From: a virus
Reading direction: 5' to 3' (one strand)
Length of the DNA: 64,000 bases
Virus record (IMG/VR): IMGVR_UViG_3300045988_183620
The position numbers and the translations under genes were made by a program. Positions 14,307 through 59,995 of this stretch are shown piece after piece; the stretch's first letter is position 1, and every line of letters begins with the position of its first letter. Under the pieces are notes generated by a model, which did not search any database, had not been told where the DNA came from, and saw only the letters and a program-made list of their open reading frames with translations.

Positions 14307-14329
14307 ATTTAGTATACGCGGTTCGCATA
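14307..14329 (-). promoter_or_regulatory. promoter-like motif (TATGCGAACCGCGTATACT variant of the TGCGAATTGnnTAnAAT family) upstream of the second tRNA array
   Basis: See the finding on the promoter motif family. Confidence 0.4.
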
Positions 14330-14360
14330 ATTCGGCAATACAGATTGTTTGAAGCACATT

Positions 14361-15047
14361 CTATATTTTGCGAAGCTGCAAATCGCTGACATCTGCAATG
14401 TCTCGGTTCTCTTTCGTGACATCTTTGACCGCGCGTTTCCTTGACCAGAGAACACTCAGGACGCGGTTGCGAAGGTTGTCGTCTTCGATGGCAGATGCTG
14501 CTTTTACGATTTCTGACTCACTCAAGTAGACTGTTCCACCCTGCTGAATCATGGTCGGATACCCGCTGTCATTTCTCAGGACCTTTTTATCAAGGCCATC
14601 GTAGGCGTATATCGGGTCAATGAGAAGCACGGTGGCGATTCCGTCCAACTGTTCTTCCGTGACGCCCTGAAAGACGAGCCAGCGGTGCATGAACGAGTCA
14701 TCCGGGATACTGTTACTGTAAAGAGAGAACAGTGGAGATACCAATTTGTTGCTCGAATAACGCTCATGCTCTTCATCGACATTCAGGTTGTCCTGCCAAA
14801 GCTTCAGCATCAAGCCATCGCCGTAGTAGACGAACGTGTCGTGAAAGAACCCGGACGAGCACACTTTGATGTGGTCGATGTTTGCTACTTCCTCACGGCG
14901 GCAGAGTACAAAGCGAGTGCCTTCACTCTTGCCGTAGGCTTCGTCATCCCACTTGACCGTGACTCGTTCCAGCACAAACCTGTCGTTGAGGAGTTTCAGA
15001 ACGGCCTTGATGGGAAATACGCGCCAGTTCATCAGATGTTCCTCCAC
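14361..15047 (-). CDS. hypothetical protein (last gene of the AAA+/zinc-ribbon/nuclease operon)
   Basis: 228-aa ORF overlapping the upstream gene by 16 nt. Confidence 0.5.
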   Translation of the reverse strand: MEEHLMNWRVFPIKAVLKLLNDRFVLERVTVKWDDEAYGKSEGTRFVLCRREEVANIDHIKVCSSGFFHDTFVYYGDGLMLKLWQDNLNVDEEHERYSSNKLVSPLFSLYSNSIPDDSFMHRWLVFQGVTEEQLDGIATVLLIDPIYAYDGLDKKVLRNDSGYPTMIQQGGTVYLSESEIVKAASAIEDDNLRNRVLSVLWSRKRAVKDVTKENRDIADVSDLQLRKI

Positions 15048-15475
15048 TCTTTCGCAATCTGGTCGTACTCGGCCATTTCTTTTTTCGTGACCTTGCCGTC
15101 CTTTTTATACAGCGTGACGCGCTGGATATAGTTGGCGGCATTGGCATCAAGTCGGCGCATGGCTTCGGCAGCAGAACTCGTCATAGTGACACCACGATAA
15201 GAGCCGCCGGAACCCAGGACATCCGGCTCATAGTAACCGGTCTCGTAGTAGACCGCCACATCCTGTCTGTCAGAAGAGGCTGCGTCCAGGATGACCTTTG
15301 CGGTATCCTTGCCGCCGCCCGTATAGGAGTTGCGGATGATGCGAGCGCCACGGTCATTTCCCTGCTGTTCATAGGCTTCGGCAATGAACTCAACGTAGGT
15401 CTTGAACTTCTGTTCGTCACCGTCTCGATGCGCTTCAATGAGCTTTCCGAGTGTGACCACGCCAACTACATTCAT
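15032..15475 (-). CDS. hypothetical protein
   Basis: 147-aa ORF in the operon. Confidence 0.5.
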   Translation of the reverse strand: MNVVGVVTLGKLIEAHRDGDEQKFKTYVEFIAEAYEQQGNDRGARIIRNSYTGGGKDTAKVILDAASSDRQDVAVYYETGYYEPDVLGSGGSYRGVTMTSSAAEAMRRLDANAANYIQRVTLYKKDGKVTKKEMAEYDQIAKEWRNI

Positions 15476-15551
15476 TGCTTTTGCTCCTCTCTTGAACTGT
15501 CTACATTATACCATTTTTGAGGTTCCGACTCGTACTGTGTAGGCCAATGAT

Positions 15552-16226
15552 TCATAGATTCTTAACAAACTTACGCGTTTTTACAGGAATGAATCTGTAA
15601 TGACTAGTCGCATCTTGTTCGACTCTCCATTTCCACATGTGGCCTTGCATCTGTTCAGAATAGAGCATCTGCTCGGCCGGTAAAAGCAGCCCTATGCCGT
15701 AGTATTTTGTAAGTGGTCTGCCCTTTTCGTGGTTCTCAGCAGCACGAGGAAAGGGGCGCTTCTCCCGTTTTAATTCATATCCGGCATCGAGCAGTTCTGT
15801 GGCATAGAGCGCCGCATTCACCCGATGAAATACATATAGCATTTGGGTGCTTGAGAAGTAATAGAAGATACAGTTGGCGTTTTTATAAAGCCACCCATCT
15901 GAGTGATGGAGCGTTGACTCATTGGTGACAGGATTGCAGTTGATGACATTGCCATTCGCGTCAAATAGATAAGAGTCAACGGCCTGTTCCAGGAAGATGT
16001 TGCCGGTAGTGTATGTATCCGTTTTGGCGTCGAGTGTCACTGTGCGGCCATCCTTGCGATGAATCAGGAAGTCAATATCCTGTTCTTGATACGCTTTGAT
16101 GTTTCGCACATCTTCGTAGCTCTCAAAGCTCAACCTTCCCAATTCGCAGCTCTTTTTTACGTAGTCAATTGCCACCTGCTCTCCGAGCTTTCCGACTGCA
16201 AGCTGGTCTTTCATATTGTAAGCCAA
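15552..16226 (-). CDS. Mrr/NERD-like PD-(D/E)xK nuclease-fold protein
   Basis: GKLGEQVAIDY ... DIDFLIH ... TLDAKTD matches the restriction-endonuclease core G..E / D / (D/E)xK. Confidence 0.5.
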   Translation of the reverse strand: MAYNMKDQLAVGKLGEQVAIDYVKKSCELGRLSFESYEDVRNIKAYQEQDIDFLIHRKDGRTVTLDAKTDTYTTGNIFLEQAVDSYLFDANGNVINCNPVTNESTLHHSDGWLYKNANCIFYYFSSTQMLYVFHRVNAALYATELLDAGYELKREKRPFPRAAENHEKGRPLTKYYGIGLLLPAEQMLYSEQMQGHMWKWRVEQDATSHYRFIPVKTRKFVKNL

Positions 16227-16232
16227 GAGGTA

Positions 16233-57915: not shown

Positions 57916-57921
57916 CCTCAT

Positions 57922-58230
57922 TTGGAGGTGATTCTTGTGCCAAATGCACGAATGCTGGGTGCTTATATCAGGCAGAAAATGGAAGAGCGGAATGTTTCAG
58001 TGTCCTCTGTTGCTTCCCTGCTCGGATGCCAGGAAGTCGAGGCAGAAAGGTTTTTATGCGGCCGTGTACTTGCGACGTATCCGCAGATGAAGCAGATTGC
58101 TGAGTATCTTGGCTTATCTGTGCATGAACTCCTGCGGAACGCCTCTCAACTTGAGGAGGATACCCCTAAAAAGAAAGTGCTCGACATCATCTGGGATTAC
58201 ATGGATGTCAGAGACGCGGTATTATGCTAA
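57922..58230 (+). CDS. XRE-family HTH protein
   Basis: LGAYIRQKMEERNVSVSSVASLLG. Confidence 0.5.
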   Translation: MEVILVPNARMLGAYIRQKMEERNVSVSSVASLLGCQEVEAERFLCGRVLATYPQMKQIAEYLGLSVHELLRNASQLEEDTPKKKVLDIIWDYMDVRDAVLC

Positions 58231-58252
58231 CCACACGCCACGGTGGTGGGCC

Positions 58253-58525
58253 TTAACAAGGGTCTGCTACTGTGGCGCTTTTTCGTGCTTCCACGAACCA
58301 TTTATCTACTTCATAATAGAGATATGTGCTGGCTCTGCCAATCTGGCATGTATAGCGTACCCCCACGCCGCCGGTCTTAGAGTATTTGCGCGGCATCACC
58401 TCCGAAATGTTTGTGATGTCGAAGCGTAGGCCCGTATCCCAGATAACGGTCTGTGGTATGAGTGTTCCGTCCGGCTGAAAGTCAGCGATGACCTCAACAT
58501 ATCGTTTTACTCTTTGTTCTGACAT
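58253..58525 (-). CDS. YolD-like small protein downstream of the Y-family polymerase
   Basis: 90 aa directly downstream of the polymerase gene; this pairing is known from SPbeta-like prophages as I recall. Confidence 0.35.
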   Translation of the reverse strand: MSEQRVKRYVEVIADFQPDGTLIPQTVIWDTGLRFDITNISEVMPRKYSKTGGVGVRYTCQIGRASTYLYYEVDKWFVEARKSATVADPC

Positions 58526-58528
58526 GAC

Positions 58529-59797
58529 TTATATGCTCCCCTGTAAGTATCCATGCGGATGAATTGTATGGTCGTTCTTGGCGTCGCAGCGAGATAAGAG
58601 CTTATCCGTGTACATTATTGCTCTTTGTACGGAATAGTACCCGAATCGGTTTCTGACTCCATCAATGGCAGCTTCAAGACGTTCCATTTCCTCTTGCTTT
58701 TCGGCACTATAATCGAATGAAATTTGGCAAGGCTCCGTATCCGGCTGTAGGTCTATGGCCCGCACGCCAATGGAACGAAGATGCTCGCTCCAATGATAGT
58801 GCTTCTTATATAGTGTGAACGCGGCTGTTGCTATCTCCTGCTCCTGCATCGTCGGCAGGGACAGCTTCATCTGGCGCTCGAAGATGAACAGGTTGGAGTC
58901 CCTCAAACTAACCTCCACGCCTCGGCATCGGAAATGGTTCTCTCGGAGGCGTGCCGCGACACTCTCTGCGAGCAGGTAAAGCACTATCCAAACATCCTGG
59001 TCGGTCTTTAAGTCCCGTGGTGTCGTCCAGCTATTTCCGATGCTCTTGATGGGAGCAAGCACCTCCCGCTGCTCGTACTTCGCCACCGGGTCAGAATCCA
59101 GGCCGTTGGCAAACCTCCAGAGCAAGAGCCCCACCTTGCCGAGCTTCTCCTGCAGAAACTGAGGTCTGGTCTTTGCCAAGTCTCCAATGGTATGTATAGC
59201 ATAGTTATCTAACTTGGCAGCCGTTTTCTTTCCTACATATAGCAAATCCGAAGCAGGCAGCGGAAAAACTATCTTCTCGAAGTTCTGCCTGTTGATGACC
59301 GTAATAGCATCCGGCTTTTTATAGTCCGAGCCGAGTTTTGCCATCGTTTTATTCCAACTGACTCCGACCGAGCAGGTAATGCCGAGTTCGTCCTTGACGG
59401 TGTCGGAGATTTTCTTTGCTATCTCCTCCCCTGTCCCAAAGAGAGACTGACTCGCGGTACAATCGAGCCAGGCCTCGTCCAAGCCAAACGGTTCGACTTG
59501 GTCTGTATAGCGCAAGAAGATTTCTCTGGTATAGCCGCTGAATCGAGTGTATAGGTCATAGTGAGCCGGAACAAAGGTGATGTCTCTGCAATGCTGCTGC
59601 GCCTCCCAAAGCGGCATACCGGTTTTCACGCCCATCCGCTTGGCCGGATACGAAGCTGTCAATACGATGCCGCTCCGCCGTTCTGGGTCGCCGCACACGG
59701 CAATCGGCTTGTCCCGCAATTCAGGATGGTAAGCCATTTCGCAGCTGGCATAGAAGCAGTTCATATCGCAATGAAGGATGGCTCGTTCTTTTGCCAT
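58529..59797 (-). CDS. Y-family DNA polymerase (DinB/UmuC-like)
   Basis: ILHCDMNCFYASCEMAYHPELRDKPIAV; start taken as ATGGCAAAAGAA. Confidence 0.8.
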   Translation of the reverse strand: MAKERAILHCDMNCFYASCEMAYHPELRDKPIAVCGDPERRSGIVLTASYPAKRMGVKTGMPLWEAQQHCRDITFVPAHYDLYTRFSGYTREIFLRYTDQVEPFGLDEAWLDCTASQSLFGTGEEIAKKISDTVKDELGITCSVGVSWNKTMAKLGSDYKKPDAITVINRQNFEKIVFPLPASDLLYVGKKTAAKLDNYAIHTIGDLAKTRPQFLQEKLGKVGLLLWRFANGLDSDPVAKYEQREVLAPIKSIGNSWTTPRDLKTDQDVWIVLYLLAESVAARLRENHFRCRGVEVSLRDSNLFIFERQMKLSLPTMQEQEIATAAFTLYKKHYHWSEHLRSIGVRAIDLQPDTEPCQISFDYSAEKQEEMERLEAAIDGVRNRFGYYSVQRAIMYTDKLLSRCDAKNDHTIHPHGYLQGSI

Positions 59798-59995
59798 GAT
59801 ATACAACTTCAATTCGTACAGATGGTATTTAATTCACATATAACAACTGACTGTTGTTATTATAGCCTATCAAGTGGTGGGATGCAAGGGGTATGGAAGA
59901 ATTTGCCGTTTGCAATCCCATTAGTTACTCTACAGCCGGGAAATGTCTTGACAAAGAAGAAAAGAGAGGAGCTTGTTTGGCTCCCCTCTTTTGCT

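Follow-up and report, generated by a model that had tools for sequence, protein, structure and literature searches.

Phage promoter classes with an extra element, and antitermination factors that are loaded at a promoter, are both well known. The alpB promoter of Pseudomonas aeruginosa has a 6-bp asymmetric AlpA element, GGGACG, at G-25 to G-20 between the -35 and -10 hexamers, as well as a -10-like CACGAT at -1 to +5 and an intrinsic terminator downstream (PMC9371919). The Q cassette is composed of three elements: a binding site within the promoter, a pause site that depends on sigma, and a terminator (PMC9388147). The DNA considered here, referred to as the window, is a stretch of 64,000 nucleotides (nt) from the IMG/VR virus record IMGVR_UViG_3300045988_183620, which belongs to a scaffold of 233,216 bp from a human-gut metagenome; including sequence beyond the window, ~85 kb of the 233 kb has been seen. 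As judged from sequence patterns, this phage has a promoter class of its own, in which an asymmetric box with the core TGCGAA is locked in register within the spacer, and about a third of these promoters are coupled to a motif of the wTRTA type at the start of the transcript and to a promoter-proximal terminator.

The word TGCGAATTG has eight copies in the window, all on the minus strand, where 0.99 are expected and none of 100 shuffles reached eight; a ninth occurrence of the word, at 16140, is intragenic. When a 38-nt weight matrix made from the aligned sites was scored over both strands, 14 sites had 31-44.5 bits and the next best position had 15.4 bits, a gap that is exaggerated because the matrix was trained on those same 14 sites. 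The family has a -35 hexamer TTGCnn, a 16-nt spacer with (G)TGCGAAyyG in its 3' part, two free bases, and a -10 hexamer TAcAAT or TAnAAT. Each promoter span, in plus-strand coordinates, begins with the last base of the -10 hexamer and ends with the first base of the -35 hexamer. No member overlaps a coding or tRNA feature, in a window that is 18% non-coding (P = 3.7e-11), so the family is wholly intergenic (14/14). All 14 are also co-oriented with the downstream genes, nearly all genes of the window being on the minus strand in a codon-usage gene map. The original prediction had given 16 coordinates for a recurring promoter-like motif; the motif is real, and 14 of these coordinates form the sharply defined minus-strand family described above. 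The other two do not belong to it: 37930 has CGAATTG, but no -35 or -10 hexamer in register, and at 59799 CGAATTG is ~20 nt upstream of the start codon (ATG) of a gene for a Y-family polymerase, again with neither hexamer in register. The box promoters span 14.3-55.7 kb of the window and resume past its left edge, where a box unit is an operon with a phage lysozyme gene. At least 18 box units are present in the ~85 kb of phage DNA seen.

Alignment of 83 non-redundant box promoters from loci of the clade gives the consensus g-TTGC-nn-A-tty-G-TGCGAA-TT-G-ca-TAcAAT-aaaaaa-T-R. Within the box, C-21, G-20, and A-19 are each present in 83 of 83 promoters, T-23 in 82, and G-22 in 80, while positions -30, -29, -13, and -10 vary freely. 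Free positions beside invariant ones indicate selection on specific positions rather than shared ancestry or recent copying; a repeat, a miniature inverted-repeat transposable element, and a recent duplication were likewise rejected, the conserved positions being specific and the flanks unrelated. The -35 TTG is found in ~95% and TAnAAT in ~86% of the 83 promoters, and the spacer is always 16 nt. Features outside the scored interval are unbiased by it, and these are an A-rich stretch at -6 to -1, a T-rich stretch at -41 to -36, and a T followed by a purine 7-8 nt past the -10 hexamer. Clade DNA has 436 non-redundant occurrences of TGCGAA; TAnA[AC]T follows at a gap of exactly 5 nt in 67 of them and at any other gap in at most three, and TTG is present 8 nt upstream in 79. 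The hexamers, the 16-nt spacing, and the intergenic, co-oriented placement all fit promoters of the sigma-A/sigma-70 type, to which the box class is assigned on this pattern, and transcription would start ~7-8 nt past TAnAAT at the conserved purine.

These positions correct some earlier placements. The element had been put at about -14 to -20, while the conserved block occupies -24 to -15 and its core, TGCGAA, -23 to -18. CGAATTG had been considered too close to the start to be a -35 box; a separate -35 TTG exists at the fixed 16-nt spacer and had been overlooked. The TG of the block was said to be one base further out than in an extended -10 promoter, and this agrees with the alignment, which has T-16 in 60 and G-15 in 75 of 83 promoters, with C or A at -14; it is the least conserved part of the block. 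An extended -10 reading was rejected, as the TG is at -16/-15 and not at -15/-14 as in TGnTATAAT.

Other known promoter types also fail to account for the pattern. The arrangement TTGCAC-N4-GTGC of the box promoters has a superficial likeness to the sigma-54 sequence TGGCAC-N5-TTGC. Sigma-54 promoters have an invariant GG at -24 and GC at -12; the box promoters have T rather than G at -33 in 79 of 83, are spaced one base too closely, and have an unmistakable TAnAAT hexamer after these elements. The sites of Mor/C-dependent promoters of the Mu type are dyad-symmetric, lie upstream of and overlapping the -35 region, and come without a -35 hexamer; the box promoters keep the -35 TTG, have no information upstream of it, and have an asymmetric box inside the spacer. 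A palindrome formed by TACAAT and a start-site ATTGTA was rejected as a feature of the class, being present at 24908 and 32370 but not general. For sigma-H, the consensus has a -35 element AGGAATT 14 nt upstream of a -10 element CGAAT (PMC6849360). CGAAT is present in the box promoters, but AGGA is absent 14 nt upstream, where -42 to -36 is T-rich, has at most 0.19 bit, and has no GG. A literature search on the motif string returned only synthetic Bacillus subtilis promoters with interlocked sigma-H and sigma-A elements.

The class is conserved among gut phages. An exact scan of IMG/VR with the query GTGCGAATTGNNTANAAT, which does not include the TTG, showed the motif at no fewer than 120 loci; among the matches listed, a single large gut dataset accounts for most, on contigs of 30-390 kb, and almost every one has TTG at the same distance. 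Several matches are homologous to promoters of the window (families C and F; locus L083). A stricter pattern, which included the TTG and the full promoter context, was run against 185,579 genomes of bacteria and archaea (596 Gb) and gave 20 exact matches, scattered over unrelated phyla, where ~17 are expected by our estimate. Chance-level cellular matches together with many viral loci indicate that the motif belongs to the phage clade and not to host housekeeping promoters, a candidate that was therefore rejected. The sole cellular record with several matches (three) is the metagenome-assembled genome (MAG) "Clostridiales bacterium HRGM_Genome_2451". Its loci L126, L138, and L140 (DYBQ01000001.1, DYBQ01000017.1) share these phage promoter and leader families, one of the contigs involved being 223,830 bp long; this MAG thus holds contigs of the phage clade, and part or all of the bin may be phage. 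No cultured relative came up when 50,697 GenBank phage records were searched with Megablast and tblastn. The host is probably Gram-positive and of a clostridial lineage, for which the evidence, though weak, consists of strong GGAGG ribosome-binding sites, ribozymes of the Faecalibacterium prausnitzii type, and the Clostridiales-labelled MAG. The expectation of a dedicated promoter class for this element is therefore upheld, both by its conservation across a clade of related gut phage contigs with chance-level matches in cells and by the presence of a second class beside it.

That second class has the canonical extended -10 sequence TGnTATAAT without the box, at nine sites in the window where 1.5 are expected, often with TTGCnn 16 nt upstream. 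Its sites include 9374-9390, 15497-15513, 4837, 38555, 54982, and 61711 on the minus strand and 44142 and 55857 on the plus strand, and an identical 17-mer, TGGTATAATGTAGACAG, is common to 9374-9390 and 15497-15513. All three units on the plus strand are driven by the box-less class, as are units within the first 14 kb and the final 8 kb, and two more inside the box zone, at ~15,505 and ~38,555. By sequence pattern, the same -35 type and spacing is paired with two alternatives, either TGn and TATAAT or TGCGAAyyGnn and TAcAAT. A plus-strand operon at 57592-58230, which encodes BlaI-like and XRE-like repressors, has a promoter at 57447-57474 (TTGACG-N16-TATAAT); its spacer, GCGCAATTCCG, is box-like with one extra base and scores 15 bits only, and the divergent intergenic region has repeated TTGACA words.

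The leaders behind the box promoters fall into two kinds. A strong ribosome-binding site and start codon follow within 25-45 nt at eight window promoters, while at six of the 14, and at a degenerate extra member described below, the leader ends in a hairpin and T run before the ribosome-binding site. A distance of 25-60 nt to the start codon had been proposed for all; it is right for about eight sites and wrong for the six (19222-19249, 23419-23446, 24908-24935, 32370-32397, 43328-43355, and 54719-54746), which have leaders of ~75-240 nt with a terminator. In the clade, a hairpin and T run precede the first open reading frame (ORF) at 26 of 71 evaluable box promoters versus 2 of 40 TGnTATAAT controls, a control set that includes chance sites inside genes. 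The terminator leaders begin with w-T-R-T-A, 5-6 nt past the -10 hexamer and 25 bp from the first base of the box. TA at the fixed positions +3/+4 is present in 23 of 26 terminator leaders versus 5 of 45 others (Fisher p = 7e-11), and four of these five, in our reading, have a terminator that the detector missed. The association between wTRTA and a terminator is seen in at least seven unrelated leader sequences. The motif is often a -10-like hexamer, namely TACGAT, TAAGAT, TAAGGT, or TAAACT, and 23 of 83 promoters have TAnnnT at this same position, most other positions having 0-3 (8 at +1, 11 at +12). The original prediction had overlooked that the box is coupled both to terminators close to the promoter and to a conserved motif where transcripts begin.

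All box promoters and leaders of the window are on the minus strand, and they precede a variety of genes. The promoter at 19222-19249 (TTGCAC..GTGCGAATTG..TAAACT) is followed by a leader, a terminator, and a Mor-like operon; the initially transcribed motif, of the wTRTA type, is at 19199-19214 (GTAGACCAAAAAGTGC), in a leader that is conserved in relatives (family F), and the intrinsic terminator, with a 12-bp stem and T run, is at 19154-19185, between the promoter and the Mor-like gene. The first gene behind this cassette encodes a 174-amino-acid protein with three helix-turn-helix (HTH) modules of the Mor type (18609-19133). Long conserved leaders are found at two promoters. At 23419-23446 (TTGTCA..ATGCGAATTG..TAAGAT), the leader cassette at 23317-23412 has GTACGATAGATAACA, a variable hairpin, TTCACAATTTCGC, and a terminator (23317-23354), after which comes the ribosome-binding site of a 110-amino-acid gene. 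At 24908-24935 (TTGCCA..TTTCGAATTG..TACAAT), the cassette at 24798-24900 has GTACGATAGATACCA and a terminator (24798-24840) upstream of a gene for a lipoprotein with a metallo-beta-lactamase fold. Short leaders follow two others. The promoter at 32370-32397 (TTGACC..GTGCGAATTG..TACAAT) has a leader at 32303-32362 with GTAAGATAAATAATTG and a hairpin and T run (32303-32347), followed by a gene for a 942-amino-acid UvrD-like helicase/nuclease; the operon behind it also encodes the second Mor-type triple-HTH protein, of 206 amino acids (28823-29443). The promoter at 43328-43355 (TTGCGT..GTGCGAATTG..TAGAAT) has a leader at 43270-43320 with GTAAGATAAATAAGTG and a terminator (43270-43298), then an operon that includes NADAR-domain and TIR-domain genes. 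The top-scoring promoter, at 54719-54746, drives a leader of ~240 nt; the long leader at 54536-54711 starts with GTACAAGCGGAATTGGGT, a start that is conserved in relatives (family C), and has a hairpin and T run at 54536-54569, followed by an SPFH/flotillin gene (52822-54474).

The promoters at 43328-43355 and 19222-19249 begin ~20 nt past the stop codon of the upstream gene, and the sole terminator of that gene is downstream of the promoter. Since that only terminator sits past the promoter, transcripts from 43328-43355 and 19222-19249 need read-through to reach their genes. A tandem pair at 42584-43246 and 43373-43984 (203/220 amino acids) looks homologous by eye.

The remaining promoters have no such leader. 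The promoter at 14311-14338 (TTGCCG-N16-TATACT, box ATGCGAACCG) drives the array of tRNAs and ribozymes between 14265 and 10213. The one at 19771-19798 drives a conserved 155-amino-acid protein without assigned function (19270-19737) and has no leader terminator; in relatives, this protein is always just upstream of a cassette that controls a Mor-type gene. A 169-amino-acid protein is driven from 20386-20413, which has a weak -35, TAGCCA, and the box GTTCGAATTG. Paralogs of 108 and 106 amino acids are driven from 37368-37395, a CGAACCG variant, and from 37873-37900, a GTGCGATTTA variant, so that these tandem paralogs (36993-37319 and 37505-37825) have one box promoter per copy. The promoter at 44025-44052 (GTGCGAATCG) drives a 203-amino-acid protein without assigned function; that at 47617-47644 drives a 294-amino-acid P-loop protein, with the terminator of the preceding unit upstream at 47666-47693; and that at 55722-55749 (GCGCGAATTG) drives a 168-amino-acid protein with a signal-peptide-like N-terminus. 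The degenerate extra family member, at 36891-36918, has TTGACA-N16-TATACT with ATGCGACCACC in the spacer and a leader of ~110 nt with a terminator at 36769-36805.

The long leader cassette, of ~100 nt, has GUACGAUAGAUAMCA, a variable hairpin, UUCACAAUUUCGC, and a terminator. Sequences beginning GTACGATAGATA occur behind box promoters only and precede unrelated genes; copies are found at 23317-23412 and 24798-24900, at 14785-14888 and 19743-19839 of locus L145, and at ~20 further loci. The terminator stem has compensatory changes at 8 of 13 pairs and is the only stem backed by the consensus fold. As seen by eye, the 5' end, which never varies and so gives no covariation signal, can pair further downstream, with partners that differ from copy to copy. 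The long leader may act as DNA, in the form of a pause element, or as RNA. Two other leaders may be structured RNAs: that at 54536-54711, before the SPFH/flotillin gene, with the conserved start GTACAAGCGGAAWTGGGT, and that at 36769-36890 (AATAGATACTGAACAGCG...GACGAATAGGGTC), behind the degenerate promoter and also conserved in relatives. A search of Rfam with relaxed thresholds returned no family for any leader.

The reading tentatively preferred here, at somewhat less than an even chance, is that the box docks a phage factor on the host sigma-A polymerase and most likely loads an antiterminator at a sigma-dependent pause. The three-part layout of box, -10-like motif, and terminator is that of the Q and AlpA cassettes, and antiterminator loading is favoured for this reason. 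The box would be read by a phage-encoded protein that is positioned on RNA polymerase in a fixed geometry. Polymerase would initiate at the box promoter unaided, and sigma would then re-bind the -10-like TACGAT, TAAGAT, or TAAGGT, of which wTRTA is part, in the first transcribed bases and cause a pause. The box-bound factor would move onto the paused polymerase, which, once modified, would pass the leader terminator and also the terminators between successive units. At units without a leader terminator, the same box could serve for loading or for simple activation. The pausing, the factor, and the read-through are what we infer by analogy. It is possible, though doubtful, that the phage has a many-copy, genome-wide regulon of the Q/AlpA type, present in gut jumbo phages of a Gram-positive host, with a new and unrelated antiterminator loaded by the TGCGAA boxes of dozens of sigma-A promoters. 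If so, the antiterminator could be a Mor-type triple-HTH protein, whose own genes behind such cassettes would provide positive feedback, and the promoter-plus-terminator cassettes would be portable, factor-gated switches placed before regulators and anti-defence genes.

Several observations weigh against antiterminator loading. Some 60% of the box promoters lack both a leader terminator and wTRTA, yet their box is equally conserved, so that antiterminator loading is not the sole role of the box unless another pause is used there. The sixth-position T, which a -10-like hexamer needs, is missing from about half of the types of wTRTA leader. The leader families share descent, which means that the association counts given above are not fully independent, and the box-less promoter at ~38555 also has a terminator downstream. 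No protein of the Q, Q82, Q21, or AlpA families (Pfam Antiterm, Phage_antitermQ, Phage_AlpA) passed the threshold among the ~60 window proteins scanned; the Q-type families have no sequence similarity to one another, and ~85 kb of the 233-kb genome was seen. Lastly, TGn is absent from the box promoters and the third base of their -10 hexamer is mostly C, which fits dependence on an activator at least as well as it fits constitutive firing.

In the alternative that comes closest, though it is on balance unlikely, a phage activator binds the box and helps the host sigma-A polymerase at a "middle" class of promoters, much like the MotA box of T4 or the element near -22 of P1 late promoters, while the leader terminators and wTRTA form a separate layer of attenuation or antitermination. 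Box promoters have neither the TGn nor the third-position T of the box-less promoters and therefore look intrinsically weaker, and the equal conservation of the box with and without terminators is what an activator site would show. A fixed register is typical of activators that touch polymerase, and the units drive next-stage regulators, annotated as Mor-type "late transcriptional activators". This explanation is opposed by the -35 TTG, which is strongly conserved (~95%), whereas activator-dependent phage promoters usually have no -35 element, and it leaves unexplained both the restriction of the long leader and of wTRTA plus terminator to box promoters and the position of promoters upstream of the sole terminator of the preceding gene.

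The near-consensus hexamers, the T-rich upstream sequence, and the A-rich discriminator describe promoters that can fire unaided, as would be expected if the box were instead a repressor operator, a single asymmetric site in the spacer of many early promoters through which one protein could silence them all, for temporal shut-off or for upkeep of a carrier state. Such a site, asymmetric, in many copies, and in a single orientation, would occlude polymerase, and the window has genes that resemble repressors of the XRE and BlaI types (4356-4577, 57592-57915, and 57922-58230). Dispersed asymmetric operators are known for C1 of phage P1 and for gp71 of mycobacteriophage L5. The register of the box is fixed to both hexamers, whereas an operator needs merely to overlap the promoter, an argument that is weakened by the position of the box inside a length-constrained spacer. 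No integrase and no prophage copy (185,579 genomes) was found, which makes a lysogenic repressor unlikely, and the coupling to terminators is unexplained. A repressor operator is accordingly considered improbable.

A phage-encoded or remodelled sigma factor, with a DNA-reading surface that extends into the spacer and takes TGCGAA as part of a long -10 region, is less probable again, although the fixed register would follow naturally from it. Huge phages often encode sigma factors, and the gene could lie in the rest of the 233-kb genome, outside the window. The -35 hexamer, the -10 hexamer, and the 16-nt spacing are, however, identical to those of the box-less class, known contacts of sigma region 3 reach about -17 and not -23, and sigma-H and sigma-54 are excluded on sequence pattern. 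Neither the window nor 1.2 Mb of related loci (140 loci) gave a sigma-70-like ORF in a crude phmmer search of all ORFs with sigma-A/sigma-70 regions 2-4, a weak test, or in Pfam scans of the window proteins. The special sigma factor suggested in the original prediction thus finds no support.

A last possibility is that the phage copied the site of a host transcription factor, such as a response regulator with a CGAA half-site like that of the Spo0A box, TGTCGAA, and so tied its programme to host physiology, as phi29 does. The CGAA core is common to Spo0A boxes and Gram-positive LexA half-sites, and the host is, on weak evidence, probably clostridial, but this explanation is very improbable, given that the box is invariantly TGCGAA and never TGTCGAA, has no second half-site, and shows no enrichment in any of the 185,579 genomes, though that scan required the full promoter context. 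A LexA box (CGAAC-N4-GTTCG) or a Spo0A box was also rejected by inspection, as the CGAA core alone matches and no partner half-site is present.

A tie between the motif and the multi-HTH regulators at 18609-19133 and 28823-29446 had been suggested, and it holds in one direction, in that box promoters drive these genes, the former directly and the latter (28823-29443) within an operon. Among the matches listed, the box units that recur most widely in relatives are families A, D, and F, and each of them codes for a multi-HTH protein of the Mor type. The 174-amino-acid protein at 18609-19133 is a candidate reader. Its predicted structure has three HTH modules joined by long helices, with a mean pLDDT (predicted local distance difference test) of 80. 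Foldseek returned no match to this model in the PDB at E <= 0.001; the nearest folds, below threshold, are the bipartite HTH DNA-binding domains of transposases. The protein has no structural resemblance to a sigma factor, Q, or AlpA.

The region also has many accessory genes and small RNAs. Genes with accessory or defence domains are found at 38736-39398, 42160-42603, 23619-24776, 25175-25948, 52822-54474, and 58529-59662, and at 15309-16196 of locus L141; the domains are TIR (CAP12/Pycsar-effector type), NADAR, a metallo-beta-lactamase fold with weak similarity to Apyc1, sortase, SPFH/flotillin, and a Y-family DNA polymerase. An AcrVA2-like gene is present in a variant of the region. Twenty-two tRNA genes form two minus-strand arrays, at 3744-5920 and at 10213-14265, of which the latter is driven by the box promoter at 14311-14338 and the former is in the zone of the box-less TGnTATAAT-type promoters (e.g., ~4837-4845). 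Ribozymes like that of hepatitis delta virus, of the F. prausnitzii type (RF02682), are above threshold at 10306-10379 and 52713-52784 and below threshold at 13691-13766, 12781-12862, 13066-13138, 10573-10644, 50187-50257, and 14025-14096, all on the minus strand. Ribozymes are directly 5' of tRNA-Ser (10213-10301), tRNA-Met (13609-13683), and tRNA-Asn (13944-14019), which suggests ribozyme-assisted processing of the tRNA array; two others are between protein-coding genes.

Almost nothing is known about how uncultured gut jumbo phages programme their transcription, and the motif makes the programme of these phages directly testable. The 28-nt pattern is a regulon marker in over 100 public contigs, with near-zero background in bacterial genomes, and the box, pause-like motif, and terminator together indicate a concrete switch that can be tested. 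If the Q/AlpA-like reading is true, promoter-loaded antitermination, so far a matter of single late operons in proteobacterial phages, would extend to a many-copy system in phages of Gram-positive gut bacteria, probably with a new antiterminator family; if it fails, the box still defines a new regulator that binds in the spacer. Being compact, the promoter-terminator cassettes might also find use as orthogonal parts for gene control.

Compared with known systems, the box promoters share with extended -10 promoters a TG dinucleotide just upstream of the -10 hexamer, but their invariant part is TGCGAA at -23 to -18, and the true TGnTATAAT is a separate class in the same phage. The phage activator classes include the T4 middle promoters, with the MotA box at -30, the P1 late promoters, with an element near -22 and the activator Lpa, and the Mor/C promoters of Mu. 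All of these combine a -10 hexamer of the host sigma-70 type with a phage-specific element in a temporal class that is dispersed over the genome, as is the case here; in those phages, however, the extra element replaces or precedes the -35 hexamer, whereas here the -35 TTG is kept and the box is inside a spacer of normal length. The lambdoid Q system at PR' has the cassette logic that is proposed here, of binding element, pause element, and terminator, followed by genes, and Q of lambda binds an asymmetric site as a monomer (PMC9388147, PMC6606751). As the three Q families have no mutual sequence similarity (PMC9388147, PMC6606751), a further unrelated family would be no surprise. The lambdoid genomes have a single cassette, right after the Q gene, for the late genes (PMC9388147, PMC6606751), while this phage has many cassettes before regulators, a helicase, and accessory or anti-defence-like genes, with no Q homologue in the ~60 window proteins. 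The likeness to AlpA is closer in its geometry. Both have a 6-bp asymmetric spacer element (GGGACG at -25 to -20 for AlpA, TGCGAA at -23 to -18 in the phage), a -10-like hexamer at the start of the transcript (CACGAT versus, in many of the terminator leaders, TACGAT or TAAGAT), a start-to-start distance from box to hexamer of 24 bp versus 25 bp, and an intrinsic terminator between promoter and genes. They differ in that AlpA serves no more than two promoters of a proteobacterium, as against at least 18 units in ~85 kb of a phage with a probably Gram-positive host; in that the gap from box to -10 is 7 nt for AlpA and 5 nt in the phage; and in that the ~60 window proteins include no AlpA-family protein and most phage box promoters have no terminator. 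What differs here is the position and identity of the box in a normal spacer with the -35 element kept, its many copies per genome in a clade of gut jumbo phages, and its coupling to portable promoter-terminator cassettes before regulators and accessory genes.

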